This document shows positions 23,589 to 58,049 of a DNA stretch of 64,000 nucleotides, in pieces (position 1 is the stretch's first letter; every line of letters begins with the position of its first letter). The notes beneath the pieces are model-generated. The model had not been told where the DNA came from. It did not search any database and was given only the letters and a program-made list of their open reading frames with translations. The DNA is from Squalus acanthias. Lineage: Eukaryota. The stretch is from NCBI GenBank assembly GCA_030390025.1, contig CM059432.1:33916001-33980000 (forward strand), written 5' to 3'. A program made the translations under genes and the position numbers.

Positions 23589-24481
23589 GGGGGAGAAATT
23601 CAGTATCGCCCCATTTGGGGCGCAATTATCGGCCGGGCACAAAGATTAGCGCCTGGCGCTAATTATCGCCACTGACTGCAAACTTGACTTTTATCGCCCC
23701 TGGAGGTGATTGCAACGCTAAATCAGGCGCTTCACACCTGTCTTAAGGTGCAAAGGCCGAGGAGCGAGGCGCTACCTCAGAGCGCTGGCGAAGCTCATGT
23801 AATGTCAGTCAGCAATGGAACACACACACAATGGCACGGGCCAGTTCTTAAAGGGGATGGTTAATCTTGCTTTCCATCCACATCCTGCTCATTGCAGCCT
23901 TGAATCTCGGCCTGGAGAGACCTGCACATCAAATCTGCTGGAAAGAACAATGGAGAGTACCAGGCAAAGAGCTCAGAGTGCAGCCCCCACAGTCTCTTCT
24001 AAATCGATACAAGGAATGGCAAATCAAAATGAACCTGCAAAGTGCTGCTCAGTCCCCGAAACTCCTTCACACAACGTTGAATCTCTCCAGAAGTCTCTCC
24101 CTCTCTCTCTCAGAATGCGTAGTTCAAAAATGGCACCAACAATAAAAGGCAGGAAGCGGTCACCTTTAAATAGCGCTCCCCCTTTCCCTTCATGACTGCA
24201 GAACGCTCCCCTCAACCTGTCGTTGCTAGCGTCAGGCGGTAAGGCAGAGGGCGCCACTCAATATCCGCTCCGGGGCGATACCGGGGCGTTGCGTACTCGA
24301 CTGACGTCACGATCTGCTGGTGCAGGAGATCGTGGCAGTAGTGTTTAGCGCCGCCGCAAAATGTCTAGTTAATTTTGCGAGCGGCGCAAACTTCGCCGCG
24401 CCTGGGCGCCAGATGCTTTGCGCCCCATTAGTGCCCTCTTAAGGCGCTAACGGGAGGCGCAACCAACTGAATTTTTCCCCC
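23589..24481. mobile_element. Harbinger-A-family MITE, copy 1 (893 bp)
   Basis: TIRs GGGGGAGAAATTCAG / CTGAATTTTTCCCCC with flanks AGA/AAA. It interrupts CR1 codons NKYF|VSVFTEED. Near-identical core to copies 2 and 3. Confidence 0.93.
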
Positions 24482-24761
24482 AAAGTATTTATTTAATTTC
24501 GCTGCCATTTCTTCATTCCCCATTATAAATTCTCCCGTCTCTGACTGTAAAGGACCTACATTTACCTTCGCCAGTCTTTTCCTTTTCACATACCTATAGC
24601 AGCTTTTACAATCCATTTTTATATATTATAGTTTGTGCTCATATTCCATTTTCCCTTTCTTTATCAATTTCTTGGTCCCCCTTTGCTGATTTCTAAAAAG
24701 ATCCCAATCCTCAGGCTGATCACTTTTTCTGGCAACTTTATAAGCTTCCTCCTTTGACTTT

Positions 24762-25652
24762 GGGGGAGAAATTCAGTATCGCCCCATTTGGGGCGCAATT
24801 ATCGGCCGGGCACAAAGATTAGCGCCTAGCACTAATTATCGCCACCAACTGCAAACTTGACTTTTATTGCCCCTGGAGGTGATTGGAGCACTAAATCAGA
24901 CGCTTCACACCTGTCTTAAGGCGCAAAGGCCGAGGAGTGAGGCGCTACCTCAGAGCGCTGGCAAAGCTCATGTAATGTCAGTCAGCAATGGAACACACAC
25001 ACAATGGCACGGGCCAGTTCTTAAAGGGGATGGTTAATCTCACTTTCCATCCACATCCTGCTAATTGCAGCCTTGAATCTCGGCCTGGAGAGACCTGCAC
25101 ATCAAATCTGCTGGAAAGAACAATGGAGAGTACCAGGCAAAGAGCTCAGAGTGCAGCCCCCACAGTCTCTTCTAAATCGATACAAGGAATGGCAAATCAA
25201 AATGAACCTGCAAAGTGCTGCTCAGTACCCAAAACTCCTTCACACAACGTTGAAACTCTCCAGAAGTCTCTCTCTCTCTCTCTGAATGCGTAGTTCAAAA
25301 ATGGCACCAACAATAAAAGGCAGGAAGCGGTCACCTTTAACTAGCGCTCCCCCTTTCCCTTCATGACTGCAGAACGCTCCACTCAAACTGTCGTTGCTAG
25401 CGTCAGGCGGTAAGGCAGGGGGCGCAACTCAATATCCGCTCCGGGGCGATACCGGGGCGTTGCGCACTCGACTGACGTCATGATCTGCCGGCGCAGGAGA
25501 TCGTGGCGGTAGTGTTTTGCGCCGCCGCAAAATGTCTAGTTAATTTCGCGAGCGGCGCAAACTTCGCCACGCCTGGGCGCTAGATGCTTTGCGCCCCATT
25601 AGCGCCCTCTTAAGGCGCTAACGGGAGGCGCAACCAACTGAATTTTTCCCCC
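24762..25652. mobile_element. Harbinger-A-family MITE, copy 2 (891 bp)
   Basis: Same TIRs and body as copy 1, same orientation. Flanks TTT/AAT give no clean TSD. Confidence 0.93.
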
Positions 25653-28387
25653 AATTTCTTTTGTTAGCCATGGTTGGATCACTTTTCCTTTTGGGTTTTT
25701 ATGCCCTAGAGGAATATATGTTTGTTTCAAATTATGCATTATTTCCTTGAATGTTAGCCATTGTATGTCCACCTTCATACCTTTTAGTGTAGTCTCCCAA
25801 TCTACCATGGCCAACTTGTCCCTCATTCCCTTGTAGTTTCCTCTGTTTAGATTGAAGACCTTAGTTTCAGATTGGACTACATCACTCTCAAACTTAATGT
25901 AAAATTCAATCATATTATGGTCACGTGTCCCTGAAGGCCCCTTTACCACAAGATTATTGATTAGCCCTTTCTCATTACACAGTACCAGATCCAGAATAGT
26001 CTGTTCCCTGGTTGGTTCCTCCACATACTGATGCAGGAAACCATCTCGCATGCATTCCAAGAATTCGTCCTCCGCACCATTAGTGGTAATTTGATTTGCC
26101 CAGTCAATATGTAGATTAAACTCCCCCATGATTACCGTATTGCCCTTGTTACATGCACTTCTAATTTCTTGATTGATACTGTGCCCTACATTACCACTAC
26201 TGTTTGGTGGCCTATACACAACTCCCACCAATGTTTTCCTCCCTTTGCTGTTTCTTAGCTCCACCCAAACTGATTCCAGTTCTACATCACGATCTGCCGA
26301 GCCAAGATCTTTTATCTCTACCGTACCGATCTCATCCCTTATTAACAGAGCTATGCCACCTCCTTTTCCTTTTTGTCTGTCCTTCCTAAATGTTGAGTAC
26401 CCTGGAACATTCAGTTCCCAGCTTTGGTTACCCTGCAACCATGTCTCTGTAATGGCAATTACATCATACCCATTTACTTCTATTTGTGCCATTAATTCAT
26501 CCACTTTGTTGCGAATGCTACATGCATTTAGATAAAGTGCCTTCAAATTTGCCTGTTTAATATTTTTCTGCGCTTTGACCCTCTTTACTGTTGGCCTGTT
26601 TACGTTTACGTGAAGAGGAGAGACATCCTGTATCCGCAGTGGGGCAGGAGGTCCTCGAGACATATGCTCAGGAGGTAGTGGGAAGAAGTAGTGGCAGAGG
26701 TCAATGCCAGGAGTGGAGCTCCAAGAACATGGATGGGGTGCAGGAAGAAGTTTAACGATCTGGCATGAGTTGTCAAGGAGAGTGAGTTCATCTTCAAATG
26801 GCATTTCCTACCAACTGCACCAGTAGCCTCATCCACTGCTCAATTCATTACATCCCCATCACCCACCTACCAACAAGCTCTATCAATCAGTACTCAACTC
26901 TTCAATCATATACTTTACCTCACCCTCACACGCTTAGCACTGTTGAAAGCCTCACACCCACAACTCACAGCTTGCACACACTGGCAGCTATTCAACCACG
27001 ACAGCCACATCATCCAAACATATTGCAGGACATTCATTGACACACTTCCCTCTTTCTTGCAGGAGAAGGTGGTGCATAACAGGAGGCAGCAGGAAGGAAC
27101 TGGAGAAGGACAGGCGTGCCTGCATGTTTTAACCCCCATGGAGTAAACAGTGCTGGCCATCATGGGACGGGCCATTGCTGAGGTCATGGCCACTTGAGGG
27201 ATTGCTGATGAGGATATCTGCATACCAAAACCTCCTTCTCTCTTCCTACTTCACCCTCATCCCACAATCTCTTCTGACTCACAAGTTGCAGATGGTGTAA
27301 GCACACACTCAAAACAACCCAACCCTTGTCCCTTTTTCATTTCAAATACCCAAGAACTGGAACCTTCCCAGTCAGAGGAAGAGGAAGAAGCCAGTGAAGG
27401 TGAAGACACACTGTCACGATCTTACACTTGCAGCCACCAGATCAGAGACTGACACTGTGCATATTTTAGAGGCTAGGATGGAGTAGGGAGTGAGTAGTTG
27501 TGAGACACCAGGCACAAGTGCTCAGGAACCAGTGTCGGGGGAAAGGATAGCGCAGGTACCAGCTCGCCAGAGGCACACTAGCTCTGCTGCAGAGGTGACA
27601 GATGAAGACTTTGATGGACGAGGCTACAAAAGAACGCTGATGGGTGTATGTAACAAAATGCTTATGGTACTGGAAAGCCTACCAGAAAGCCTGTGCACAA
27701 TGTCAAGGAGCATGGAGGAGTTCAGCACCAACTTGGAACAGGGCTTTGCGCAGAGCTTGGAGCCCATCCTTTCCAACATGAAATGGGTGGTCACCTCCAT
27801 CAGCACACCTGTGGAACCTATCATGATGCAAGGACTGATGGCCGATGTCACAGCTTCTATTGCAGCACAATAGACTGCTGCCATCATGGCTCTGGATACC
27901 ACTGTTCAAAGGAGCTTCCAGGCTTCACAGCAGTCCATCAATCTGTTCTCCAATAGAGCAATAGGATTGCTAAGGCGCCACCCCGGGAGAGAGGCAGTGA
28001 CTACAGTGAACACAAACCCGCTGTCCTCCCTTAGGATGAGTGCCTCAATGAGTGCAGATCGGAACAGAGTGTTAAGCTGCGAGTTTGGTGAGTGAGGGAG
28101 TAAATCTTAAAGGTTAATCTCTTATTTTTATAAATTCTAGTCTTGTGTGCATGCAATTAGCATTTAAATTTACTGTTTCAAGTTTTAAGTTTCTTCCAGG
28201 CTTGGGCAGGGCTAAGCAAGCTCTGTGCTGGAGAGCAGGTGAGAGTACTTAATTAATTAAGTGGTCTAATCAGGTTCTGTAACTGCCAGAGAGCTCACTT
28301 ATTTAAATCTCAGCAGTATAAATAAGGGAGGCTAGAGTGCAGTTTGTCACAGAGTGCAGATCGGAACAGAGTGTTAAGCTGCGAGTT

Positions 28388-28500
28388 GAGTGAGTGAGTG
28401 AGTGAGTGAGTGAGTGAGTGAGTGAGTGAGTGAGTGAGTGAGTGAGTGAGTGAGTGAGTGAGTGAGTGAGTGAGTGAGTGAGTGAGTGAGTGAGTGAGTG
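28388..28500 (+). repeat. (GAGT)n microsatellite, about 28 units, inside the CR1 5' UTR
   Basis: Directly visible. It explains the spurious SLTH-repeat ORFs. Confidence 0.97.
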
Positions 28501-28727
28501 GTTCCTTTCTTTTTCCATCTTTGTCAGCTTCCACGAGAGCAGGAGCTAAAAAGTTGCACAAGAGGGGACAGAGAACCAGCGGTGAGTATTTCTACAGTAT
28601 TTCTACATTCTTGTCATTAAAGTAAAAGTAAGGTCTCTAGTTTAGAGTAACTAGTGTTTAAAGGGAAGTAAGGTCCCTAGTATATTTAATATTCTTTAAT
28701 TTAAAGGGAGTAAATTAAGTGTAGGAC

Positions 28728-29679
28728 ATGGCAGGGCAGCTCGGCAGTGTGGAGTGCTCCTCCTGCGCTATGTTGGAAGTCAGGGACAATTTAGGTGTCC
28801 AGGGTGAACACATGTGCAGGAAGTGTCTCCGGCTGCAGCTACTCGAAATCCACGTTTCGGAGCTGGAGCTGTGGCTGGAGTCACTGTGGAGCATCCACGA
28901 AGCTGAGATCTTCGTGGATAGCACGTTTAACAAGGCTGGTCACATCGCAGGAAAAGAGTGCACAGGCAGACAGGGAATGGGTGACCACCAGACAGAGTAA
29001 AAGAACTAGGAAGGTAGTGCAGAAGTCCCCTGCGTCCATCTCCCTCTCTGACAGATTTTCCATTTTGGATACTGATGGGGGAGATAGTTTCTCAGGGGAA
29101 TGCAGCAAGAGCCAAGTCCATGGCACTACAAGTGGCTCAGCTGCACAGGAGGGGAGGAAAAAGAGTGGGAGAGCAATAGTGATAGGGGTTTCTATCGTAA
29201 GGGGAACAGATAGATGTTTCTGTGGCCACAGACGTGACTCCAGGATGGTATGTTGCCTCCCTGGTGCCAGGGTCAAGGATGTCACTGAACGGCTGCAGGG
29301 CATTCTGAAGGGGGAGGGCGAACAGTCAGAGGTCGTAGTTCACATTGGTACCAACGACATGGGTAGAAAGAGGGATGAGGTCATGCAACAAGAATTTAGG
29401 GAGCTAGGTAGCAGATTAAAAAGCAGGACCTCAAAGGTTGTAATCTCTGGATTACTCCCGGTGCCACGTGCTAGTGCATATAGGAATAGGAGGATAGAGC
29501 AGATGAATGCGTGGCTAAAGAGTTGGTGCAGGAGGGAGGGCTTTAGTTTCCTGGATCACTGGGTCTGCTTCTGGGGAAAGTGGGACCTGTACAAGTCTGA
29601 TGGATTGCACCTGAACCGGAACGGGACCAACATCCTTGCGGGGAGGTTTGCTAGTACTGTTGGGGGGGGTTTAAACTAA
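28728..29679 (+). pseudogene. CR1 ORF1: N-terminal Cys cluster (CSSC...CRKC) and SGNH/GDSL-like esterase domain; one frameshift near 28935
   Basis: ORFs 28728-29000 and 28795-29679 carry IG(D/V)SIVR, HIGTND and DGLHLN. The minus-strand copy reads through the frameshift (FNKVVTSQ). Confidence 0.9.
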
Positions 29680-32604
29680 CTTGGCAGGGGGATGGGATAT
29701 GGAGTGGAGCTATAGTAGGGGGTGATGCACAGCCAAATATAGAGGAAAAAACAAGTCAGCCTGGAAGGCAGGGCAAATATGTAACGGCACAAGGGAGTAT
29801 GGCAAGGCTGGTTGGCATTTATTTTAATGCAAGGAGTCTTGCGAGTAAGACAGATGAATTGAAGGTGTTGATGAACACATGGGAGTATGATATTGTTGCT
29901 ATCACAGAGACATGGTTGAGGGTGGGGCAGGACTGGCAGCTCAATATTTCGGGGTATAGGATCTTCAGGCGAGACAGAGGGGGGGTGTAAAAGAGGAGGG
30001 GGTGTCGCAATATTAATCAAGGAGTCAATTACTGCTGTAAGGAGGGTTGATATCTTAGCAGGTTCCTCTAATGAGGCCATATGGGTAGAACTTAAGAACA
30101 AAAAGGGGGCATGCACTTTGCTGGGAGTGTACTATAGGCCTCCAAACAGTCAGGGGGAGATAGAGGAACAGATATGTAAGCAAATCTCAGAGAAGTGTAG
30201 AAATAATAGGGTAATAATAGTAGGGGATTTCAACTTCCCCAATATTAGCTGGGATAGTCAGAGTGTGAAAGGCTTAGAGGGTGCAGAATTCTTAAAGTGC
30301 ATCCAGGAGAGCTTTTTGAGCCAGCATGTAGAAAGTCCTATAAGAGAGGGGGCGGTACTGGACCTAATTCTAGGGAATGTAGCCGGGCAAGTGGTAGAAG
30401 TGTTAGTAGGAGAGCATTTTGGTGACAGTGACCATAATTCGATGAGATTTAAGGTAATCATGGAAAAGGACAAAGATGGACCGGAAATAAAGGTTCTAAA
30501 TTGGGGGAAGGCCGATTTTAATATGATAAGGCAGGATCTGGCCAAAGTGGACTGGGATCAGCTACTTGTAGGAAAATCCACATCAGAGCAGTGGGAGTCT
30601 TTCAGAAAGGAAATAGAGAGAGAACAAAGGCAACATGTTCCCGTAAAGGTCAAGGGTGGGACCACCAAGCCCAGGGAATCCTGGATGTCAAGGGATATAC
30701 GAGAATGGATTAGGAAAAAAAGGGAGGCTTTTGGCAGATACAAAGGACTAAAAACAGTGGAAGCCCTAGAGGAGTATAGAAAGTGCAGGGGGGTACTTAA
30801 AGAAATTAGGAGAGCAAAGAGGGGGCATGAAATAACACTGGTGGGCAAAATAAAGGAAAATCCCAAGGTGTTTTATAAGTATATTAAGGGCAAGAGGATA
30901 ACCAGGGAAAGAGTATGGCCCATTAGGAACCAAAGTGGCAATCTGTGTGTAGAGCCAGAAGATGTAGGCGGGATTTTAAATGAATATTTTGCATCTGTGT
31001 TCACTATGGAGAAGGACGATGTAGGCATAGAAATCAGGCAGGGGGATTGTGATATACTTGAATAAATTAGTATTGAGAAGGAGGAGGTACTAGCGGTTTT
31101 AGCAGGCTTAAAATTGGATAAATCCCCAGGCCCAGACGAGATGTATCCCAGGCTGCTGTGTGAGGCAAGGGAGGAGATTGCAGGGGCTCTGACACAAATT
31201 CAGAACCTCTCTGGCCACAGGGGAGGTGCCAGAGGACTGGAGGACAGCTAACGTAGTATCATTATTCAAGAAGGGTAGTAGGGATAAAACAGGGATTTAC
31301 AGGCCAGTGAGCATAACATCAGTGGTAGGGAAATTATTGGAAAAAATTCTGAGGGACAGAATTAGTCTCCACTTGGAGAGGCAAGGACTAATCAAGGATA
31401 GTCAGCATGGCTTTGTCAGGGGAGATCATGTCTAACCAATTTGAATGAATTTTTCGAGGGGGTGACTAGGTGTGTGGATGAGGGTTGTGCAGTTGATGTA
31501 GTCTACATGGACTTCAGTAAGGCTTTTGAAAAAGTCCCACATGGGAGACTGGTCAAGAAGGTAAGAGCCCATGGGATCCAGGGCAATTTGGCACATTGGA
31601 TCCAAAATTGGCTTAGTGGCAGGAGGTAGAGGGTGATGGTCGATTGTTTTTGTGACTGGAAGCCTGTGTCCAGTGGTGTACCGCAGGGATTGGTGCTGGG
31701 TCCCTTGCTGTTTGTAGTGTACATTAATGATTTAGATATGAATGTAGGAGGTATGATCAGTAAGTTCACAGATGACACAAAAATTGGTGGAGTGGTAAAT
31801 AGCGAGGAGGGAAGCCTCAGGCTACAGGACGATATAGACGGGTTGGTCAGAATGGCAGAACAGCGGCAAATGGAATTTAACCCTGAAAAGTGTGAGGTGA
31901 TGCATTTTGGGAGGACTAACAAGGCAAGGGAATACACAATGAATGGTAGGACCCTAGGAAGGACAGTGGATCAGAGGGACCTTGGTGTGCATATACATAG
32001 ATCCCTGAAGGCAGCAGGACAGATAGATAAGGTGGTTAAAAAGGCATATGGGATACTTACCTTCATTAGCCGAGGCATAGAATATAAGAGCAGGGAGGTT
32101 ATGATGGAGCTGTATAAAACATTAGTTAGGCCACAGCTGGAATACTGTGTGCAGTTCTAGTCGCCACACTATAGGAAGGATGTGATTGCATTGGAGAGGG
32201 TGCAGAGGAGATTCACCAGGATGTTACCTGGGCTGGAGCGCTTCAGCTATGAAGAGAGACTGGACAGGCTGGGGTTGTTTTCCTTAGAGCAGAGAAGGCT
32301 GAGGGGGGACCTGATTGAGGTGTACAAAATTATGAGGGGCATAGATAGGGTAGATAGAAAGGAACTTTTCCCCTTAGTAGAGGGGTCAATAACCAGGGGG
32401 CATAGTTTCAAGGTAAGGGGCAGGAGGTTTAGAGGGGATTTGAGGAAAATCTTTTTCACCCAGAGGGTGGTTGGAATCTGGAACTCACTGCCTGAAAGGG
32501 TGGTAGAGGCAGGAACCCTCCCAACATTCAAGAAGCATTTAGATGAGTACTTGAAACGCCATAGCATACAAGGCTACGGACCAAGTGCTGGAAAATGGGA
32601 TTAG
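29670..32604 (+). pseudogene. CR1 ORF2 (endonuclease plus reverse transcriptase), disrupted by several stops and frameshifts
   Basis: YFNARSL, AITETWL, GVYYRPP, GDFNFP, SDHN, MDFSKAF, GVPQG, KFTDDTK and RGHSFK across ORFs from 29799 to 32604. Confidence 0.92.
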
Positions 32605-32676
32605 AATAGACAGGGCTTGATGGCCGGCGCGGACATGATGGGCCGAAGGGCCTCTTTCTGTGCTGTATAACTCTAT

Positions 32677-33568
32677 GGGGGAAAAATTAGGTCGCGCCCC
32701 ATTTGGGGCGCAAATATCGTCTGGACGCAAATATTAGCGCCTGGCGCTAATTATCGCCACTGACTGGAAACTTCACTTTTACCGCCCCGGGAGGTGATTG
32801 GAGCGCTAAATCAGGCGCTGCACACCTGTCTTAAGGCGCAAAGGCCAAGGAGTGAGGCGCTAACTCAGAGCGCTGGCGAAGCTCATGCAATGTCAGTCAG
32901 CAATGGAACACACACACAATGGCACGGGCCAGTTCTTAAAGGGGATGGTTAATCTTGCTTTCCATCCACATCCTGTTCATTGCAGCCTTGAATCTCGGCC
33001 TGGAGAGACTTGCACATCAAATGTGCTGGAAAGAACAATGGAGAGTACCAGGCAAAGAGCTCAGAGTGCAGCTCCCACAGTCTCTGCTAAATCGATACAA
33101 GGAATGGCAAATCAAAATGAACCTGCAAAGTGCTGCTCAGTACCCAAAACTCCTTCACACAACGTTGAATCTCTCCAGAAGTTTCTCCCTCTCTCTCTCA
33201 GAATGCGTAGTTCAAAAATGCCACCAACAATAAAAGGCAGGAAGCGGTCACCTTTAAATAGCGCTCCCCCTTTCCCTTAATGACTGCAGAACGCTCCCCT
33301 CAACCTGTCGTTGCTAGCGTCAGGCGGTAAGGCAGGGGGCGCCACTCAATTTCCGCTCCGGGGCGCCACAAGGGCGTTGCACCATGGAATGATGTCACAA
33401 TCTGCGCGCGCAGGTGGTCGCAGCGGTAAAGTTTAGCGCCGGGCACAATGTCTAGTTAAGTTCCCGAGCGGCACAAACATCGCTGCGCCCGGGCGTTAGC
33501 GGCTTTGCGCCCCATTAGCGCCCTCTTAAGGCGCTAACGGGAGGCGCAACCAACTGAATTTTTACCCC
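32677..33568. mobile_element. Harbinger-A-family MITE, copy 3 (892 bp), inserted in the CR1 tail
   Basis: TIRs GGGGGAAAAATT / AATTTTTACCCC with flanks TAT/CAT. Its ends are the reverse complement of the element A ends. Confidence 0.93.
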
Positions 33569-34120
33569 CATGACTCTATGGGCTGGATTTTGCCAGGCCC
33601 GAGGAGGAGGGAATGGAGGCGTGTGTGGTGTTAAAATAGCAAAATGGCGGGCGGGCCCGACCCCGCCTCCATCCCGCCTCCGAGCAATTTTCCCCAATGC
33701 GTGGTTTTTGATCCCGTCTCCGTCCCGCCTCCAAGAGGTGGGATAGGACTTTAAGGGGTAAAAATTCACTTGGTTGCGCCTCCCGTTAGCGCCTTAAGAG
33801 GGCGCTAATGGGGCGTTAAGCCGCTAACGCCCGGGCGCAGCGATGTTTGCGTCGCTCGAGAACTTAACTTGAGATTGTGCGGCGGCGCTAAAACTTACCG
33901 CTGCGACCACCTGCGCGCGCAGATTATGACGTCATTCCATGGTGCAACGCCCTTGGGGCGCCCCGGAGCGGAAATTGAGTGGCGCCCCCTGCCTTACCGC
34001 CTGGCGCTTCCAACGACCGGAAGACTGGAACGCTATCAATCGCTGTGGGGCTGGGGGGGGCGCTATTTAAAGGGGGCCTCTTCCTGTCTTTTATTGTTGG
34101 TCGACATTTATGCACCACTC

Positions 34121-34122
<2 letters not shown>

Positions 34123-34161
<39 letters not shown>
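34123..34161 (+). repeat. (AG)n microsatellite in the transposase A leader
   Basis: Directly visible. A shorter (CT)n equivalent is present in the MITEs. Confidence 0.9.
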
Positions 34162-34164
<3 letters not shown>

Positions 34165-34264
34165 CTACATTGACTCAACGCTTTGTGAGGTAGTTTTGCC
34201 TATTCATCCTAACTTTGTTGCTACTTTAGTTGCTGTCCCTCATTACTTTTCTGGCGAAGAGAAT

Positions 34265-35421
34265 ATGGGGGCTGCACTGATTGGGGGCGTCGTCCTGCTC
34301 CAGCTGAATCGGAGGATACAGAGACGCAGACAGAGAGTGGCAATGATGGCCAGACGGAGGAGGGCCATCAGGCGCATGTACAGGAGAGCTTACCCTCCCA
34401 GGGTATATCGTGAACAGCTCGCCTACATCCATATGTCCGAGGAGCTGTGTTTACGAAGGCTGCGATTCAGCAAGGAGGTGGTCACTGAGCTCTGCCAGCT
34501 GCTGCAGCCAGATCTGCAGCCTCAGCTGAGGTCCAGGACGTCTCTGTCGGTGGCAGTGAAGGTCACAGTGGCTTTGAACTTCTACGCCACTGGCTCATTC
34601 CAAGCTGCTGTTGGGGACCTTGCCAATATCTCCCAGTTTGCGGTGCATCGCTGCATCCGGCAGGTCACCAATGCCCTCTTCAGAAGGAGACGAGAGTTCA
34701 TCTCTTTCCCTATGACCCCAGACAAGCAGCGTGACCGTGCTCTGGGCTTTGCGAGGGTAGCGGGCTTCCCCATGGAGCAGGGCGCCATTGACTGCACGCA
34801 TGTGGCTTTGCGTGCTCCGCGTGAGAATGCAGAGGAATTCAGGAACAGAAAGGGGTTCCATTCCTTGAATGTCCAGTTGGTCTGTGACCACAGACAGGTG
34901 ATACTCGCTGTCATTGCCCACTATCCTGGCAGCTGCCACGATGCTTTTATCCTGCGCCAGACTACTGTGGCAGAAGTTTGAGGCACCGCATCAGCCAGTT
35001 GGTTGGCTTCTCGGGGACAAGGGGTACGCATTGAGCACCTGGCTGATGACACCGCTCCGTACGCCAAACACCCCTGCTGAGCTGCGGTACAATGAAAGCC
35101 ATCAAGCAACCAGGAACATTATTGAGCGCACAATCGGCGTGCTGAAACAACGGTTCCGCTGTCTGGACCATTCCGAGGAGCCCTGCAGTACTCGCTGAGC
35201 AAGTATCGAACTTCGTAGTCGTGTGCTGCATGTTGCACAACATGGCAATCCTCAGGACCCAGCCAATGCCACCAGGCCTTGTAGCACCACCAGAGGAGGA
35301 GGAGGAAGAGGAGGAAGAGGACGAGGACGATGATCATCAGCAGCACCAAGGCGGGAGGGCGGCCCACAATGGTCAAACTGCAAGGGCCGTCCGTCAACGA
35401 CTAATAGCAAGCCGCTTCTAG
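34265..35421 (+). pseudogene. Harbinger A DDE transposase (HARBI1-like family), frameshifted near 34978 and 35178-35198
   Basis: [79 protein letters not shown] and an acidic tail. Confidence 0.93.
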
Positions 35422-35834
35422 GGCCCCTGCCATTGCTACCAACATTAATCAACCCAGCACGCAACCCCTAAGCCAGGGCGGCCCACAATGGTCAAACTGC
35501 AAGGGCCGTCCGTCAACGACTAATAGCAAGCCGCTTCTAGGGCCCCTGCCATTGCTACCAACATTAATCAACCCAGCACGCAACCCCTAAGCCGGCCAAG
35601 GCACCAATAATTCCAACCACCAGCCATGTATATTTTGAATACAGAAACTTATTTATTTTACAAACTCTGTGTGTGTCAATTCCTCATGACAAACTCATAG
35701 AAATAAACACAAAAAAACAGTCAATAACATAACTGGTTCTCACAACCTGGAGATAATGTCCAAAACACTAAACAAAAGTTGGACCATGAACCTCGACCTT
35801 TAATAAAAAAATGACCAGCATTTTGTTACACCTC

Positions 35835-37655
35835 CTACTTTTTGCCCTTCGAGGGTGATCTCCTTCCCTTGCGCACTTCCCCCCTTCTAACCCTACTGCT
35901 CCTCCGTAATGGGACCTCAGTGGCTGCAGCAAGGCTGGTGGAAGGCTGCTGCTCGTCAGACCCTGACACTGCAGATGCCCCTGAAGGACAGCCTCGACCA
36001 CTTCTGGGCCTGGAGGGCCCGGCTGCAGACTGCACCAACTCTGCATGGGCGGCAGCAGTCTGTCCTACAGGCGGTGGCAAGTGCAGTGGAGAAGTGACAG
36101 TGTTGGCAGCAGGAATGCTGTCATCGAGAGAGAGGACAGCAACTCCCTGCTCGCCCGACACACTGGCACTCCCACGGGGCAGCACTTCAGCATCCGGAGC
36201 AATCTGCCGGAGAACAGATTGCTGGCCTGCTGCGGCGCGGTGACAGCCCCGGGGACATGTGCACGAACCATCGAGGTTGGCAGCAGTCTGTGCTCGCGTG
36301 GCCTCCATCTGAGTCTGTATGAGAGCAGTCAGAGATGGGATCACGGCAGCCAGTGACTGAATTGCAGCACTAAGCGTTAGTGTGGCATCCGCCTGTGCTA
36401 CAGCGAAGTGCTCCACACTCCTTGCCAGTGACTCAATGCATTCGGGCACCCTTCCCACTGCACCCATGAGCTCAGTGTGCATGCCCACCGCCTGGGTGTT
36501 CATTTCTGCAATCAGCCGCTCCTCCTCTGCGTCCATTGCAGTAGGAGTGTCTGGCATACTCTCCCTCTGGGGAGAAGGCCCCCGTTCTTCCCTACCCCCC
36601 CCATGGTGTTGCTGCAGCCCGCTGGGTCCTGGAGCTTCACCCTCATCAGCCCCTTCCCCCCTGCTCCCCTCCGGGGAAGGCGTGTTCCCAGTGTGGGCAT
36701 GGGCTTTCTCGGGAGAGGGTGGCACTGATGCTCTGGCTTCCTCTTCCTCCTCAGCTGCAGCATCACTCCCAGTGGCAGCTTCAGGGCCCGTCTCCTCAGC
36801 TGGTGAATCACCATCTGAAAGCAGGGAGGTACAAGAGTGGCTTTAGCGTGAGGACAGGGTGGCAGTAAGGGAGGAATAAGTGCAGCGAGTTAGCAAGTTG
36901 GATTGAAAGTGTCAAAGGCTGGTGTTGTGAGGGACAAGTGGAAGGACAGAGGACAAAAAGGTGATGACCTTACCATTGCTGTCCAGAACGGGGTCGGCGT
37001 CTCCAGTGGCGACGGGACCGATCACCCGGCTTGCCACAATCCTGTGGACGCGCTCCTCAAGATCGCTGAGGGGTTGCAGCTGAGGCCGCCCGCCACCTGT
37101 CCGTTGCTGCTGTCTCCTATTATGAGCCAGCTTAGCCTGCAAGAAAAAGGACAGCATCTGAGTAAATATACAGCCATGGTCTTGCCTGATGTGCCTCCCA
37201 TAGGTGAATAGCCCTTACTGGATGCAGCCATGGTCTTGCCTGATGTGCCTCCCATAGGTGAATAGCCCTTACTGTATGCAAAGTGTGGAATGTGTGTGTG
37301 TGTGTTTGATGAAAGGGCCATAGGTGTTGGATGAGTGTTGTGCATTGTGGTTTTAAGACCCTCTGGCCATAGAGTGAGGTTGAGATGGAGGGATGGAGAG
37401 GTATTGAGAAAAAGCCACTCACCCTGACGACCCGAGTGAGGTCGTTGAACTTTGTGGCATTGAGTATGGGTCCTGGGCACCATGCTCCTGGAGGAGACGC
37501 TCTGAGCCACCTCCCTCCACACTCTTCTGAACTCGCGTGGCAAAGGCCTCCTGCCACTCTCAGGGAACAGCATACATCGTCTGCGCTCCACTGCGCCAAC
37601 CAGAGCATCCAAGGCCCGCTCGGTGAAGCGATGAGCGCGTTCTCACCCTCTCCAT
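35835..37655 (-). pseudogene. Harbinger A Myb/SANT-like protein, three exons (37655-37423, 37136-36974, 36814-35835), with frameshifts in exon 1
   Basis: RFTERALDALV...W.EVAQSV...RT..QC.K-KFNDL. GT-AG sites (AGG|GTGAGT, TTGCAG|GCT, ATG|GTAAG, TTTCAG|AT) keep the frame into ORF 35835-36725. Confidence 0.85.
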
Positions 37656-38369
37656 GCTTGGCAGCAAAATGGATTCACAGGTCTCTCCAGGCTGAGATTC
37701 AAGGCTGCAATGAGCAGGGTGTGGCTGGGGAGCAAGTGGCCCCCCCCGCTTTAAGAAGTGTCCGGCGCCAGTGTGTCTGTGTTCCCTCGCTAACTGGCAG
37801 CAGCTGCGCTGCGCTCGCGTGCTGAGTTAGCGCCTCACTCCTTGGCCTTTGCGCCTTAAGACAGGTGTGCAGCGCCTGCTTTAGCGCTCCACTCACCTCC
37901 CGGGGCGGTAAAAGTGAAGTTTCCTGTCAGTGCCGATAATTAGTGCCAGGCGCTAATATTTGCGTCCAGACGATATTTGCGCCCCAAATGGGGCGCGACC
38001 TAATTTCTACCCCTAAGGCCCTTAACAACCACTTAATTGCCTCTATAATCCCATTTTGAGAGGCCTTTCCGATTTTAACACTTTTCCCACGTGATGCACG
38101 CCTCCTCTGAAACACGATGGTGAAACCTGGCGGTAGCAGAATTCGATCGCTGACTATCAGCTGCAGCACCACCATTAAAAAGGAGATTTCATCAATCATC
38201 ATTTGCAGGTGGCAGAACTTTGTTGTCTCAGGTCTGGGGGAACTTTTAACAGGCATGACCATTGCTGTGGAAGTTTGGAGCCTGACACCCATCTCCAGTG
38301 TGACCTCCTGGGAAACCCCTCTCCCCACCTTGAATGAGCGCTTCCTCAACTGAGGCATATACCAGAAGC

Positions 38370-39617
38370 ATGGGAACCATTTATTTCCTTTCCTCCTGAA
38401 CATCAGATGAGGACGAACACCAGCCACGGCAGCAGCAGAACCCTGAACACCAGCAGCACCAACTGCAGGAGCAACAGCAGGAGCTCCAAGCTGCTGCTCA
38501 CCCACCTGAAGCTGCACAGGCCAGAAGGTGCCAGCGCATGGAAGCACGTCAGCACAGGAGATACCCCCAAAACAGGGTCAACAGACAGAGGATCAGCTAC
38601 CTCAGCATGACTGAGCAGCAGTGCCAAAGGCGGCTACGACTTTTGCGAGAGATAGTGGGTGACATCTGCGCAATGGTGCAGCAAGACCTGGAGCCCAGAG
38701 GAGCAGGTGGACACCCCTTACCAGTGCCCGTCAAAGTCACCACTGCTCTCAACTTTTTTGCCTCAGGCTCATTCCAGGGATCAGCAGCAGACATCAGCGG
38801 CATCTCCCAGGCGGCCGCACACACTTGCATCACGCAGGTAACCGATGCCCTCTTTGCCATCGCGCACAATCACATCCATTTCTCCAAGGATCAAGCCAGT
38901 GTAACTGCGCGGGCGGTTGGGTTTGACAATCTGGCAGGCTTTCCCAGGGTGCAGGGCGTCGTTGACTGCACACATGTGGCCCTTAAGGCACCCCATCACA
39001 ATCCATGTATTTTTGTCAACCGCAAGGGCTTCCACTCCCTCAACGTACAGCTGGTGTGTGACCACAAGAAGGAAATTTTGCATGTTTGCGCCAAGTACCC
39101 TGGCAGTTGCCATGACTCCTTCATCCTGCGCCAGTCTAGTGTGCCTCCGCTCTTCAGTCCGCCAGACCAACTTCACGGATGGCTACTTGGAGACAAGGGC
39201 TATCCCCTGAAGACGTGGCTAATGACGCCGTTTAGGAGCCCATCCAACGAAGCTGAGGAGCGCTACAACTACAGCCACATTTCCACCTGATCCATAATCG
39301 AGCAAACCATCGGCTTGCTGAAGATGCGCTTCAGATGCCTGGATAGATCAGGTGGAGCCCTGCAATACTCAGCAGCCAGGGTCTCCAGAATCGTTGTGGC
39401 TTGCTGTGCACTTCACATGGCACAGCGTCATGGCTTGCAGATTCCTGAGGACCAAGTGGCTCCTCACATATCCTCCTCAGATGAGGAGGAGGAGGAGGAG
39501 GAGGAGGAGGGCGAAAACGCTCATCTTGCAGAGGCGCATCAACCAGCGGCAGCAGTATGCGAGAACATTGCTGCCCGGGATGCAAGGAATGCACTCATCT
39601 TGGCCAGATTTGCTTAG
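38370..39617 (+). pseudogene. Harbinger B DDE transposase, single reading frame with two in-frame TGA stops (38397, 39288)
   Basis: ATG 38370 is in frame with ORFs 38538-39290 and 39315-39617. Motifs GVVDCTH, NRKGFHS, PGSCHDS, LGDKGY and IEQTIGLLKMRFRCL. Confidence 0.93.
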
Positions 39618-41883: not shown

Positions 41884-42174
41884 TTTGCCTCCAGGTCCCT
41901 CTCACAGCAAAGGACAAAAGGTTGGCAGTCTGCAGAAGAAGCAAGGCTTCTTGCAGACCTTAAATGCAGCAGCAATGATGACGTCATCGGAGGCGACTTT
42001 CAGACTGACAAAACTAATTGGGCCATGGGTTCCCACACGCTGGAACTCAAGTGCTCAATTCGGGGAAACTCTAATAATTCTCCCACTGCGACTTGGAGTC
42101 GGGTGGCTAACACGAAAAGCAGATTAAACGACCCCAGCCCGCCCCAATGACAAAATCGAGCCCAATGACTCTAT

Positions 42175-44693
42175 TAACATCCAGGGTTCCCTGGACATGT
42201 TGGTCTCACCCTTGACCTTTACTGGAACATGTTGGCGCTGTACTCTCTCTATTTCCTTTCTGAATGACTTCCACTGCTCTGATGTGAATTTTCCTACAAG
42301 TAGCTGATCCCAGTCCACTTTGGCCAGATCCTGCCTTATCATATTAAAATCAGCCTTCCCCCAATTTAGAACATTTATTTCCGGTCCATCTTTGTCCTTT
42401 TCCATGACTATCTTAAATCTCACCGAATTATGGTCACTGTCACCAAAATGCTCTCCTACTAACACTTCTACCACTTGCCCGGCTACATTCCCTAGAATTA
42501 CATCCAGTACCGCCCCCTCTCGTGTAGGACTTTCTACATGCTGGCTCAAAAAGCTCTCCTGGATGCACTTTAAGAATTCGGCACCCTCTAAGCCTTTTAC
42601 ACTCTGACTATCCTAGTTAATATTGGGGAAGTTGAAATCCCCTACTATTATTACCCTATTATTTCTACACTTCTCTGAGATTTGCTTACATATTTGTTCC
42701 TCTATCTCCCCCTGACTGCTTGGGGGCCTATAGTACACACCCAGCAAAGTGCTTGCCCCCTTTTTGGTTTTAAGTTCTACCCATATGGCCTCATTAGAGG
42801 AACCTGCTAAGATATCATCCCTCCTTACTGCAGTAATTGACTCCTTGATTAATATTGCGACACTCCCTCCTCTTTTACACCCCCCTCTGTCTCGCCTGAA
42901 GATTCTATACCCTGCAATATTGAGTTGCCAGTCCTGCCCCTCCCTCAACCACGTCTCTGTGATAGCAATAATATCATACTCTCATCAACACCTTCAATTC
43001 ATCTGCCTTACTCGCAAGACTCCTTGCATTAAAATAAATGCCATCCAGCCTTGCCATACTCCCTTGTGCCGTTACATATTTGCTCTGCCTTCCAGACTGA
43101 CTTGTATTTTCCTCTATACTTGGCTGTGCATCATCCCCTACTATAGCTCCACTCCGTATCCCATCCCCCTGCCAAGTTAGTTTAAACCCCCCCCCAGCAC
43201 TAGCAAACCTCCCGCAAGGATGTTGGTCCCTTAAGGTTCAGGTGCAACCCGTCCGACTTTACAGGTCCCACCTTCCCCAGAAGCCGACCCAGTGATCCAG
43301 GAAACTAAAGCCCTCCCTCCTGCACCAACTCTTTAGCCAGGCATTCATCTGCTCTATCCTCCTATTCCTATACTCACCAGCACATGGCACCAGGAGTAAT
43401 CCAGAGATTACAACCTCTGCTTTTTAATCTGCTACCTAGCTCCCTAAATTCTTGTTGCAGGACCTCATCCCTCTTTCTACCCATGTCATTGGTACCAATG
43501 TGAACCACGACCTCTGACTGTTCGCCCTCCCCCTTCAGAATGCCCTGCAGCCATTCAGTGACATCCTTGACCCTGGCACCAGGGAGGCAACATACCATCC
43601 TGGAGTCACGTCTGCGGCCACAGAAACATCTATTTGTTCCCCTTACGATAGAATCCCCTAGCACTATTGCTCTCCCATTCTTTTTCCTCCTCTCCTGTGC
43701 AGCTGAGCCACTCATAGTGCCACGGACTTGGCTCTTGCTGCATTCCCCTGAGAAACCATCTCCCCCATCAGTATCCAAATTGGAAAATCTGTCGAGAGGG
43801 GAGATGGACCCAGGGGACTTCTGCACTACCTTCCTAGTTCTTTTACTCTGTCTGGCGGTCACCCATTCCCTGTCTGCCTGTGCACTCTTTACCTGCGATG
43901 TGACCACCTTGTTAAACGTGCTATCCATGAAGATTTCAGCTTCGTGGATGCTCCACAGTGACTCCAGCCACAGCTCCAGCTCCAAAACGCAGATTTCGAG
44001 TAGCTGCAGCTGGAGCCACTTCCTGCACATGTGTTCGCCCTGGACACCTAAAGTGTCCCTGACTTCCCACATAGCACAGGAGGAGCACTCCACACTGCCG
44101 AGCTGCCCTGCCATGTCCTACCCTTAATTTACTCCCTTTAAATTAAAGAATATTAAATACACTAGGGACCTTATTTTCCTTTAAACACTACTTACTCTAA
44201 ACTAGAGACCTTACTTTTACTTTAATGACTGGAATGTAGAAATACTGTAGAAATACTCACCACTGGTTCTCTGTCCCCTCTTGTGCAGCTTTTTAGCTCC
44301 TGATCTCCTGGAAGCTGACAAAGATGGAAAAAGAAAGGAACACCGCCACTCACCAAACTCATAGCTTAACACTCTGTTCCAATCTACACTCTGTGACAAA
44401 CTGCACTCTAGCCTCCCTTATTTATACTGCTGAGATTTAAATAATTGAACTCTCTGGCAGTTACAGAACCAGATTAGACCACTTAATTAATTAAGTACTC
44501 TCACCTGCTCTCCAGCACAGAGCTTGCTTAGCCCTGCCCAAGCCTGGAAGAAACTTAAAACTTGAAACAGTAAATTTAAATACTAATTGCAAGCACACAA
44601 GACTAGAATTTATAAAAATAAGAGATTAACCTTTAAGATTTACTCCCTCACTCACCAAACTCGCAGCTTAACACTCTGTTCCGATCTGCACTC
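42175..44693 (-). mobile_element. CR1 LINE of the same family as 28050-32676, with 5' UTR, ORF1 and EN intact but 3'-truncated
   Basis: ORFs 43374-44114, 42613-42948 and 42124-42549 are near-identical to the + copy proteins. Homology stops at REPWM, equivalent to about 30690. Confidence 0.94.
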
Positions 44694-44714
44694 TATTCTA
44701 TGATTCTATGATTC

Positions 44715-52086: not shown

Positions 52087-53165
52087 AGCCCCGATTTTAA
52101 CTCGGGGTGAAAGTTCAGTACGGTGACCGCAGCACGTGCAGCAGGCTGCTTCAACTTGCCGACGCAAGACCTGGGCCATTTTAACTCCCGCGCCTCGTTA
52201 CCATAGTCCAGGTCCAGCCCCCTCCCAAACCCGGCAGGGCTGATGACGTGGAGACCGGTGGGTAGGCGTGGTATCGAGGTGGGAGGAGGCCGCCGACAGG
52301 AACAACAACAACTTGCGTTTATATAGCGCCCTTAACATACTGAAACGTCCCAAGGCGCTTCACAGGCGCGTTATCAAAAAAACAAAATTTGACACCGAGA
52401 CATGTAAGGAGATGTTACGGCAGATGACCAAAAGCTTGGACAAAGAGGTATGTTGTAAGGAGCGTCTGAAAGGAAGAAAGAGAGGTAGCGAGGCAGAGAG
52501 ATTTAGGGAGGGAATTCCAGAGACCTGCGGGAATGGTGTCCGGCAGGCAGGTGAGTGCGCCGTGCGGGGAGGTCGACAGGCGAGCGCGGTCGGGAGAGAG
52601 GAGGCTCACGGTTTCCTTTCAGGCCTGGAGGAGCACTCCTGCTCTTCCTGGCCACAAGGAAACAATTTAAAAAAATGTATTCACCTTCCCGGCCCTCTTC
52701 TGGGCCTGCTCCTGCACGGCAGGATTTTTCCTGTCAAGGCCGACATCGGGCGCTGAATGTGTGGCACAAGGTTTAAATGGTGTTGGGGTCTATGACATAG
52801 GAAATGCTAGGCGAAAAAATACCAAGGTTCATCTAGTTTGCCTTCTGCCATCTTGGTAGTCGCACAATGTAATGATAATTAAGTTGTTGACTAATTATGG
52901 TAATCAGTCTCTATAAAATAGTCTACAAAAGACCCAGAGATGATGTCATCAGACCCCGAATCTTACATCTCAATGAGGCCCTTGCCTGTCTGGGATGAGG
53001 GCCTCCGATATTTTCCAAAAAGCGCCTGTTAAAATGGCGTGAGTGCAGCGTGAAGAAAGTGAGTCGCATGCTGTCATGATTTTAAACGACCCCCAACCGC
53101 TCCTCCACTCCCTCCCGCATGCCTCGATCTCATCAGGCGCGGGGTAGGGGTTTAAAGTCGGAGCT
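52087..53165. mobile_element. Probable Harbinger-type non-autonomous element containing an L2-type 3' end (52300-52520, minus strand)
   Basis: TIRs AGCCCCGATTTTAA / TTAAAGTCGGAGCT with flanks TAA/TAT. Internal (AAC)n plus TTGCGTTTATATAGCGCC tail. Confidence 0.6.
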
Positions 53166-54430: not shown

Positions 54431-55563
54431 CATTTTTTTCATCCAATCGGCTATTCTTCATGTGTGAGTTAGACAACGAGGGAAATAATTTTAATCTAAC
54501 GCACCCGGCAGGACACTGAGGATCAAACCGGCTGCCCATTTTACACTCCACCCGATTTTACTTCCCATTGACTTCATTAGAGTGTAAAATCGGTGTAAAG
54601 GTTAGGTTAAAATTGCCCTGAGTATCGGAAGGCTATGCAGATGTCAAGGAGTGTGCTGTAGCAGGGCCTGATCCTGTCCTTACCTTGCCCACACACGTAC
54701 ATGCAGACTTTCCAACAGGAGACATTGGCAAGTATAGCGGGAACCTTCTTTAAAAGGAGATTCTATTGTGAGATGTTTTAAAGGGCCTTTTAAACGCTCT
54801 TTCAAAGAGGTCTTGATGACGAGCTCCCCTTTACAATTCCACGAGCAGCATCATCTCCAGTACCTGAGTCGAATTGCGATTATTCATGTGTGAGCTGCGA
54901 CAGACTATTTAACCATAGAGGGCATCACAGCTGAGCCTGCTGTCTACCTCCCCTGGCTTCCACACATAAACACTTCCAGTAGGGGTCAGGAGATAATGAC
55001 AAGGAGCAGGCTGACTTTACATTGATTCATTCAAATGCAAATTAGATAGATTTCTTTCAGAAAATAACATTTTGGGATACAGTATATGAGTAATTTGAGA
55101 CATGACAGCTGGTAAGTGTAGCCTGCTTGGGAGGAACAGGTGACTTTGAAGCTATGGTTCCCAAAACTCTCCACCAATGGGGTTTTCCTCGTGTCATTCT
55201 GGGTCTGTTGTCGAATAATTGATAGTGATTGATTGCTATGATTAGTCAACAACTCCATTATCATTGTATCATGTGACTACCAGGATGATAGAAGGCGAAC
55301 TAGATGGACCTTGGTCTTACTCCGCCTAGCATTTCCTATGTTCCGACAGTTCCCTAACCCATGGGTTGAGGCAGCCAATTAAATAGCAGCAACAACAAGC
55401 ATTTATTTAGCGCCTTTAATAAAGCAAAACATCCCAAGGCACTTCACAGGAGCATTATCAAACAAAATTTGACACTGAGCCACATAAGGAGGTATTAGAA
55501 ATAAAAACAGAAAATGCTGGAAATACTCAGCAGGTCAGGCAGCATCTGCGGAGAGAGAAACAG

Positions 55564-55600
55564 GGTTAACGTTTCAGGTCGATGACCTTTCGTCAGAACC
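55564..55600 (-). ncRNA. Minimal type I hammerhead-ribozyme-like motif in the Penelope terminus
   Basis: Minus strand reads GGUU-CUGACGA-A-AGGUC-AUC-GACCU-GAAAC-GU-U-AACC: stem I GGUU/AACC, stem II AGGUC/GACCU, palindromic stem III ACGU. Confidence 0.75.
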
Positions 55601-55842
55601 GGAAAAAGTTAGAGATGTAACAGGTTTTAAGCAAGTGCAGAGGGAGGGAAAGGGGGCAGGGGAGGAAAGAACAAAAGGAAAGGTCTGTGATAGGATGGAA
55701 GGCAGGAGAGATTAAATGACAACAGGGATGATGGTGCAAGCAAAAGGGAGTGGTAATGGAACAAGAAACAAAAGATGGGTTTAGAGGAGTGTAAATGGCA
55801 ACAGAAAAATCATTATCAGCACCTGCTGTCCGAAAAAATGGG

Positions 55843-56050
55843 CAAATGTGAGAAGTCGCACAACACCAGGTAAAAGTCCAACAGCTTTATTTGAAATCAC
55901 AAGCTTTCGGAGCACTGCTCCTTCGTCACCTGACAAAGGAGCAGCGCTCCGAAAGCTTGTGATTTCAAATAAAGCTGTTGGTCTATAACCTGGTGTTGTG
56001 CGACTTCTCACATTTGTCCACCCCAGTCCAACACCAGCATCTCCACATCA
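55843..56050 (+). mobile_element. 208-bp non-coding palindromic insertion with a hammerhead-like motif and 12-bp TSD
   Basis: Inverted repeat 55843-56016. TSD CGAAAAAATGGG at 55831-42 and 56051-62. Confidence 0.85.
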
Positions 56051-58049
56051 CGAAAAAATGGGAGCAGCGGTTATGATCTGAAATTGTTGAACTCGATTTT
56101 GAGTCCGGAAGGCTGTAAAGTGCCTAATCGAAAGATGAGATGCTGTTCCTCGAGCTTCACTAGAACATCATAGGAGGCCGAGGAGAGAGAGGTCAGAGTG
56201 GGAGTGGAGCAGAGAATTAAAGTGACAGGCGACCGGAAGCTCAGGGTCACGCTTGCGGACTGAACGGAGGTGTTCCACAAAGCGATCGCCCAATCTGCGT
56301 TTGGTCTCCCCAATGTAGAGGAGACCGCATCGAGGGCAGCAAATACAGTATACTGAATTGCAATAAGTACAAGTAAATCGCTGTTTCACCTGGAGGGAGT
56401 GTTTGGGGCCCTGGACGATGAGAAGGGAGGAGGTAAAAGGGCAGGTGTTGCATCTCCTGCGCTTGCACGGGAAGGTGCCGAGGGAAGGGGAGCAGGTGTT
56501 GAGGGTGGTTGAAGAGTGGACCAGGGTGTCACGGAGGGAGCAGTCCCTTCGGAATGCTGAAAGGGGAGGGGAAGATGTGTTTAATGGTGGCATCATGCTG
56601 GAGGTGGCGGAAATGGTGGAGGATAATCCGTTGAATGTGGAGGCTGGTGGAGTGGAAGGTGAAGACAAGGGGAACCCTATTGTGGTTCTGGGAGGGAGGG
56701 GAAGACGTGAGAGCAGAAGTGCAGGAAATGGGTTGGAGATATTAGGTCAGGTGACTAAAAGCATTGTCAAAGAGGTAAGTTTTAAGGAGTGTGTTGAAGG
56801 AGGAGAGAGAAGTAGAGACGGAGAGGTTTAGAGAGGGAATTCCAGAGTTTAGGGCCTAGGCAGCTGAAGGCAAAGCCGCCAATGGTGGAGCGATTAAAAT
56901 CGGGGATACACAAGAGGCCAGAATTGGAGGAGTGCAGATATCTTGGAGGGTTGCAGGGCTGGAGGAGGTTACAGAGATAGGGAGTGGCGGAGCCGTGAAG
57001 GGATTTGAAAACAAGGATGAGAATTTTAAAATCGAGGTGCTGCCGGACCAGGAACCAATGTAGGTCAGCGATGATGTGTGAACGGGACTTGGTGCGGGTC
57101 AGGAGGTAACAAAGGCATGGATCAGAGTTTCAGCAGCAAATGAGCTGACGCAGGGGTGAAGATGGGCAATTATAATGCACTTACCACTATCCCAGCTCAT
57201 ATCAGCCAACGCAGGGATGAAATCTGGGCTCTATGTGGTGTGTATATCTCAGGCACACTGAAATACCTGGTGAGATTCCCTCCTTAATTCCGCTGCTAAG
57301 TGTCCTTATTTCAGAATGCACTTGCCCGTTGTCCGGGCTTTCGTATGCTCATCTGTTGCTATGGCACTAGCTTAAGGATCAGACCAAGGCGGTGCCCCTC
57401 ACAGCCAAACTCATAATTCTAGATCTTTCTTTCCGTGAACCCTTGTGCCATGCTGGCAGCCATTGATAGGAATTGGGTAGGAATTAGACTTGAATGGCGG
57501 ATGTGGTTGTCCGTATATAATCAGATTTATTACAGCCTTAATTGACATATTACTAAAAGGGTCAGTGAGGGGGATCACACACGTATGGCACCAATCCTCA
57601 CACCAATAGTATTTGATTTTCAAAATAAACTTACTAAGATCATCCACAAAGAATTGTCCCAATTTATTGAGTGCCAATACCATGCTTAAAAGATTTACTT
57701 AAGGAACGCTTAATTGCTTGAAAGAGAGAGAGATACAATACAATTAATGCTTCTCTTGTTCTGTTCTGTTAGCAACTCCTAAGTGGAAGGTGGTTGCAGG
57801 ATAACACCAAGCAAGTGGTGGCACCAGTTTTAATCTCGGCCAGCGTTACAATGTGCAAAGACACCATCTTGTTCATTGTCCTCTGAGTGCTCACACGCTG
57901 TGCTGCAGTCAGTAGGAACACTCTGCCATTTTGACGATGGTTTTGAGATGTCGTGCAGTGCCTCGATGTGGGGACCAATCTAACTGTTCCGACTAATGAC
58001 ACCTTCTCCTTCCTTATCTGCTGAAAGCACCAACTATTGCTGGGGTTTT

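Follow-up and report, generated by a model that had tools for sequence, protein, structure and literature searches.

Insertions of Penelope-like retrotransposons (PLEs) are described as being often preceded by an inverted, 5'-truncated copy of the element and as bearing a tail of 30-40 bp at one end (PMC8557442). In Adineta vaga, for example, one copy with a 31-bp tail adjoins an inverted repeat and is flanked by a target-site duplication (TSD) of 9 bp; TSDs at others measure 8-10 bp, and head-to-head placement is the usual arrangement (PMC3846280). For PAc, a Poseidon-type PLE of Anolis carolinensis, the tail has been placed between two start sites of reverse transcription; the PAc protein nicks and extends both strands, its main template in vitro is uncleaved RNA, and ORF coordinates of 111-118 nt for the main start and of 26 for the cut set the two 85-92 nt apart; the inversions are left without an explanation in that report (PMC11167929). 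The minimal hammerhead ribozymes of these elements are said to require a second copy of the same polarity, as a dimer, and to cleave weakly, and opposite-strand pairs of hammerheads are recorded 100-700 bp apart in PLEs (PMC4209133). Metazoan retrozymes, a further class of hammerhead-bearing sequence, are reported as tandem direct repeats (PMC7229834; bioRxiv 10.64898/2026.07.22.740005).

Here we describe a hairpin-forming insertion in a window of 64,000 nt (the whole stretch of DNA analysed). We argue that it is very probably a single, extremely 5'-truncated insertion of a high-copy Penelope-like retrotransposon, its palindrome having been made during integration, and that it is best read as an ordinary PLE stump of a known class rather than as a separate element.

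Architecture of the hairpin

The components of the insertion are as follows, the assignments to a PLE terminal repeat (pLTR) being putative.

55831-55842, plus strand: left copy of the 12-bp TSD (exact direct repeat; empty-site contigs)
55843-55928, minus strand: putative inverted, tail-less, 5'-truncated copy of the pLTR end (81 of 86 positions equal to the sense arm)
55926-55930, plus strand: centre junction, a 3-nt microhomology (55926-55928) common to both arms and then a 2-nt spacer (read from the sequence)
55926-55962, plus strand: minimal type I hammerhead motif (motif scan, fold of the isolated 37-mer, landmarks)
55929-56016, plus strand: putative sense copy of the pLTR end (contig depth)
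56017-56050, plus strand: AC-rich putative PLE tail of 34 nt (27 of 34 bases A or C; recurrent ends in other copies)
56051-56062, plus strand: right copy of the 12-bp TSD (exact direct repeat; empty-site contigs)

The initial annotation had reported a 174-bp inverted repeat with a 34-bp tail, and our measurements agree: the paired arms (55843-55928 and 55931-56016, 86 nt each) show 5 mismatches over their 86 positions, of which 2 are transitions and 3 transversions, and with the spacer of 2 nt between them they make up 174 bp. Computed folding of the RNA gives -154.5 kcal/mol, compared with an average of -51.9 for shuffled sequences (z = -23.4), and 0 of 200 shuffles folded as well. The inverted arm extends from the tail boundary to just inside the hammerhead core, keeping G8; C3 and the 5' strand of stem I are absent. 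These absences had been taken for a loss suffered by the mirror arm, and a G indeed stands at the C3 position, but the cause is the truncation point of that copy, not mutation: the arm is without C3 and stem I because the inverted copy was truncated there. At two other centre junctions (see below) the inverted arm may run into the stem I strand, from which we infer that 55926-55929 probably represent the family's own stem I strand.

Within the tail, a 9-base pairing is possible with 55990-55998. For the tail segment 56025-56037, the upstream part of the repeat (55976-55998) offers a choice of two 9-base partners, one of them present only in the letters of the mirror arm, and such pairing may form the AC-rich stem-loop where reverse transcription of PLEs begins.

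A short, palindromic, TSD-bounded and high-copy sequence could also be a MITE or foldback element derived from a DNA transposon, its hammerhead-like string having arisen by chance. The inverted repeats, however, are not terminal, since 34 nt at the right end are unpaired and the two termini lack complementarity, and a 12-bp TSD is, to our knowledge, atypical of the common cut-and-paste superfamilies. Moreover, fixed 3' ends combined with variable 5' ends point to reverse transcription, and the layout of the motif equals that of the hammerhead in a neighbouring PLE (both documented below). A DNA-transposon origin is in our judgement highly improbable.

Empty sites and the nested host

For the comparison with contigs and reads, 4 of 24 public runs were compared with 55500-56400 at 85% likeness; run X23 comes from another organism and supplied 31 reads only, and run X24 gave 0 reads. 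Among the best-supported 15 of 191 joint rows, 3 skip the entire element: one leads from 55830 to 56051 (220 bases skipped, 12 letters fitting either side; 2 contigs of run X5), one from 55831 to 56052 (2 contigs of run X5 and 1 of run X15), and one skips 219 bases (2 contigs of run X15). The letters shared at these skips number 10-12 across runs X5 and X15. The contigs are paralogous host copies without the insertion, and because they skip exactly 220 bases with 12 shared letters, the exact 12-bp repeat at 55831-55842 and 56051-56062, for which chance at the given place would be 1.4e-7 under the local base composition, is a true TSD, as had been claimed for it.

The sequence that received the hairpin is itself a PLE, of a different family, with the following landmarks.

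55488-55498, plus strand: left copy of the host's 11-bp TSD (right copy at 56735-56745, 1 mismatch), inside an older LINE
55499-56734, minus strand: the host PLE, 5'-truncated and from a different family (GIY-YIG end, protein relatives, alignment, family ends)
55564-55600, minus strand: the host PLE's own minimal hammerhead motif (motif scan, 0 mismatches in the core)

The stop codon of the host PLE lies at 56071-56073 and its 3' end near 55501-55505, and the hairpin was inserted 8 nt past the stop codon. Pfam matches its GIY-YIG frame weakly (E = 0.0024, short of the curated cut-off), and among the best 3 of 8 protein matches identity to ray and shark proteins is 60-63%, two of these carrying PF26215; these relatives suggest a cartilaginous fish as the source of the window. 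In the alignment the protein carries a CX4CxxC linker, a mark of Neptune and Nematis PLEs (PMC8557442), by which the host is classed, from its sequence, as Neptune-type. Insertion into another PLE is common to the hairpin and to published complex PLE insertions (PMC8557442, PMC3846280). The host hammerhead has an intact core, and its layout is equal to that of the hairpin's hammerhead.

Both flanks of the host align to an uninterrupted LINE copy at 52298-52522, in which the site is present once, and overlap there at 52408-52417; this copy serves as the empty site for the host PLE. The region 55488-56745 therefore shows three levels of nesting, an older LINE holding a truncated Neptune-type PLE (11-bp TSD) that in turn holds the hairpin stump (12-bp TSD). 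The older LINE appears L2-like. Fold-back at the hammerhead is seen in the host family too, in a strand-change joint at 55564/55599 (depth 305), and for 244 X5 contigs the alignment breaks off at 55599. A mismatch of the window at 55600 may shift the latter break point, the alternative being subfamily divergence upstream.

A high-copy family with fixed outer ends and variable centres

In run X5 the summed contig depth, which is no copy number, reaches ~4e6 over 55965-56026 and ~7e5 over the tail, and is 6e3-3e4 at host positions 55748-55840. Such depths show a very large family, a highly abundant repeat whose 3' end the hairpin represents. The tail, initially called unique, is single inside the insertion, but the contigs identify it as the normal 3' end of that high-copy family. 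Three reads of the other organism (run X23) end exactly at 56050, and 2 X5 contigs run from 56050 into host sequence elsewhere; because of these latter joints, the hairpin family must have entered copies of the host family more than once. In those 2 contigs the position joined to 56050 is 55558, in the 3' end of the host family.

The tail's inner boundary shows in joints at 56013, 56014 and 56016. Among the best-supported rows, outer ends thus recur at 56050 and 56013-56016 while the centres vary, and this combination of fixed 3' ends with variable 5' truncation is a feature of PLE insertions. At least 7 other centre junctions were found, 5 in the best-supported 15 of 191 joint rows and 2 in the best 12 of 76 rows of a second table.

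Other centre junctions: 55899 to 55975; 55902 to 55946; 55904 to 56006; 55926 to 56014 (strand change)
Other centre junctions, continued: 55928 to 56016; 55908 to 55998; 55869 to 56004

Each of these is a single contig, and for the 5 from the joint table the short side measures 21-36 letters at 85% likeness; the listing covers departures from straight alignment, so that copies with the window's own centre, which align straight, fall outside it. Some of the junctions could reflect either assembly of the palindrome or later central deletions. In two, however, the inverted arm reaches 1-3 nt further upstream than in the window copy, and because it there includes C3, and may continue into stem I, these two cannot be deletions of the window copy's centre. 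The contig letters of one copy with another junction show an intact hammerhead core.

As to where the inverted arms stop, 3 of the 7 junctions do so at the 5' edge of the hammerhead (55930-55933) and 3 within 5 nt of the predicted cut (55954-55960), and one of the 7 arms could end exactly at that cut. The ribozyme may shape where the cDNA stops, the rows being few and pre-selected.

A rival reading is a fixed, non-autonomous hairpin-plus-tail subfamily, in which PLE proteins would re-insert whole transcripts of fold-back stumps, this very centre included, and the junction would be inherited. Of the alternatives it comes nearest to the initial annotation, minus active cleavage. Some other junctions have an X5 depth of 130-330, and because this exceeds the 12-20 of several long flank-bearing contigs, they could occur in several copies; PLE proteins are, furthermore, described as able to move pLTR-flanked sequence in trans (PMC3846280). 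Multi-copy junctions are nevertheless also explicable by segmental duplication or by riding inside other elements. The at least 7 other centres, two of which extend beyond that of the window copy, speak against a fixed unit, and one integration event is enough to yield a tail-less arm on one side together with a TSD. An RNA hairpin of 86 bp would, in addition, bury the sequence adjoining the start sites. On balance we regard re-mobilised stumps as improbable; if they were real, they would constitute an inverted-repeat family distinct from the tandem retrozymes, whose centre would be fixed by a stop at the hammerhead's 5' edge.

BLAST within the 64,000-nt window matched the element only to itself and its mirror, with no second copy, and no ORF for reverse transcriptase or GIY-YIG was tied to the terminal repeat, the adjacent GIY-YIG frame being that of the host PLE. 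Literature searches returned, by title, no description of the hairpin family from sharks and nothing relevant on named hairpin-tail non-autonomous PLE families; Repbase or Dfam may catalogue the family. None of the 8 candidates for a 47-residue frame across the hairpin, and none among 1.84 billion representatives, shares the junction, a result of little weight. A 20-base motif of the element had 0 stretches in viral contigs. Two metagenome contigs carrying the 20-base motif were set aside as chance matches, being GC-rich (64-67%) and devoid of similarity beyond the 20-mer, as were 46 viral-contig loci retrieved with a looser gapped pattern, 0 of 46 of which match the element at E up to 1.

Hammerhead motifs and their predicted burial

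A motif scan of the window, allowing at most 1 mismatch in the core and requiring 4 or more pairs in stem II, found 6 matches: the two hairpin arms, the host PLE motif and three others. The motif at 55926-55962 has the letters given in the initial annotation, and comprises a stem I of 4 bp, an extra base before a 5-bp stem II, a palindromic stem III of 4 nt, and U17; its predicted cut falls after 55958, and stems I and II form in the computed fold of the isolated 37-mer. Its identification as a minimal hammerhead of Penelope type was sound, the layout being that of the neighbouring PLE's motif and of the PLE consensus: metazoan PLE minimal hammerheads share with it a short stem I, the extra base before stem II, G10.1-C11.1 and a palindromic 15.2-16.2, whereas C3 with A8, U17 and two abutting motifs set the hairpin apart (PMC4209133). 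In the core, A at 55935 replaces G8, and C3 is unchanged, so that the substitution is uncompensated; the 2'-OH of G8 is the proposed general acid of the hammerhead (PMC6155905). A hammerhead family did not emerge from Rfam, where none was present among 17 matches at E up to 10, the best being microRNA hairpin models below their gathering scores.

There is one motif per strand, and the two abut. With ~100 nt of flank, an equilibrium computation assigns a pair probability of 0.0 to stems I and II of the plus-strand motif and likewise to stem II of the mirror motif on the minus strand, and a mean of 0.93 to the long hairpin on the plus strand. The earlier suspicion that this copy is inactive thus appears well founded: with A at position 8, no partner on the same strand and stems predicted to be buried in the hairpin, it is very likely catalytically dead. 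The hammerhead is probably an ordinary passenger of the PLE terminal repeat.

This bears on a more far-reaching proposal of the initial annotation, namely that two inverted ribozyme units make up a retrozyme-like element and that its ancestor could self-cleave in both polarities; replication would on that reading have gone through small or circular RNAs. In its favour, both strands carry a hammerhead motif, the core is intact in another copy, and retrozymes have been linked to PLE terminal repeats (bioRxiv 10.64898/2026.07.22.740005); like the hairpin, metazoan non-LTR retrozymes are described as non-coding, hammerhead-bearing, related to PLE terminal repeats and flanked by TSDs of >4 bp (PMC7229834; bioRxiv 10.64898/2026.07.22.740005). 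They consist, however, of tandem direct units bounded by same-strand ribozymes, with circular RNAs, whereas the hairpin is a single inverted pair with its ribozymes buried in the computed fold, and the locus holds no tandem direct array. Ancestral cleavage in both polarities is not borne out by the computed pairing, which leaves the hammerhead stems at 0.0 in either transcript, nor by the single motif per strand, in a type for which a dimer is needed (PMC4209133). With the arms placed head to head, transcription from either side makes the antisense arm first, and co-transcriptional folding would thus presumably not help. Furthermore, the ends of the unit lie 92 and 58 nt from the cut site and not at the cut, other copies have different centres, and an inverted copy with a tail is the published layout of PLE insertions. 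We therefore retain from the earlier interpretation the mobile insertion, the true TSD and the Penelope-type hammerhead, and consider a distinct two-unit retrozyme extremely unlikely.

Probable integration as a truncated PLE

The truncated-PLE explanation, by contrast, accounts for the hairpin within a known class. Its PLE parentage is an assignment by architecture, in analogy with described elements. Endonuclease-bearing (EN+) PLE insertions have, like the hairpin, a head-to-head inverted copy at the 5' end (PMC8557442, PMC3846280); a tail is present on one side only, of 34 nt in the hairpin and 31 nt in Pen2a_Av, and the TSD of 12 bp compares with 8-10 bp in Adineta vaga copies (PMC3846280). 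Inverted copy, tail and TSD together being the published form of a PLE insertion, mobilisation by Penelope proteins, as first proposed for this locus, is most likely correct. The hairpin departs from published PLE insertions in comprising only ~120 nt of terminal repeat and no ORF, and in coming from a cartilaginous fish. With PAc it shares an AC-rich tail, and its tail end lies 92 nt past the predicted cut, where the PAc start of reverse transcription lies 85-92 nt past the cut; the PAc ORF starts inside the hammerhead (PMC11167929), whereas the sense arm of the hairpin has a stop codon in the one frame translated.

On this basis a two-primer route can be envisaged. The PLE endonuclease would nick both strands 12 bp apart, and the uncleaved element RNA would serve as template for reverse transcription from two PLE start sites, the right-hand nick priming cDNA at the end of the tail (56050) and the left-hand nick at its inner boundary (56016). 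Both cDNAs would stop at the 5' edge of the hammerhead and be joined via the 3-nt microhomology, and repair would yield the 12-bp TSD. Because both arms cross the predicted cut site, the template would have been uncleaved, or re-ligated. At the left junction, pairing is possible between the final 4 bases of the target and the first 4 of the tail (3 Watson-Crick pairs and 1 G-U). We favour this route, with some reserve, as the source of the inverted copy. Fold-back self-priming, which has been proposed for PLE insertions (PMC3846280), is a less likely though credible alternative; the near-symmetric centre fits it as well as it fits two primers, but fold-back does not readily give an inverted arm longer than the sense arm, as is the case at several junctions, unless later deletions are invoked. 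Other routes are less likely still.

By itself the locus is of little consequence, a dead stump left by an insertion of a known class. What it offers is an observation on PLE integration, which is still unsettled. If the two-primer reading holds, the two outer ends would mark both start sites of reverse transcription, and the centre would exemplify joining by microhomology. The passage of both arms across the ribozyme cut site agrees with the uncleaved-RNA template found in vitro (PMC11167929). In a family of such high copy number, a census of centre junctions could separate two-primer from fold-back priming and show whether the hammerhead sets the stop of reverse transcription.

Other features of the window

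The first third of the window is occupied by a satellite array of a 44-bp unit (4-21227; ~485 copies, 91% matches). Harbinger-type transposase frames are found at 33809-39290, with a DDE_Tnp_4 match (E = 5e-13) for 33809-34978 and a similar frame at 38400-39290; related ends of this region are repeated at 23589-25655 and 32673-34143. Tandem duplications, a perfect one of 119 bp and a near-perfect one of 54 bp, lie at 35356-35593 and 37171-37280. Frames at 28795-31065 presumably represent a CR1-type ORF1 with endonuclease, and two LINE copies, 94-97% identical, are present in opposite orientation at 28050-30691 and 42174-44694.
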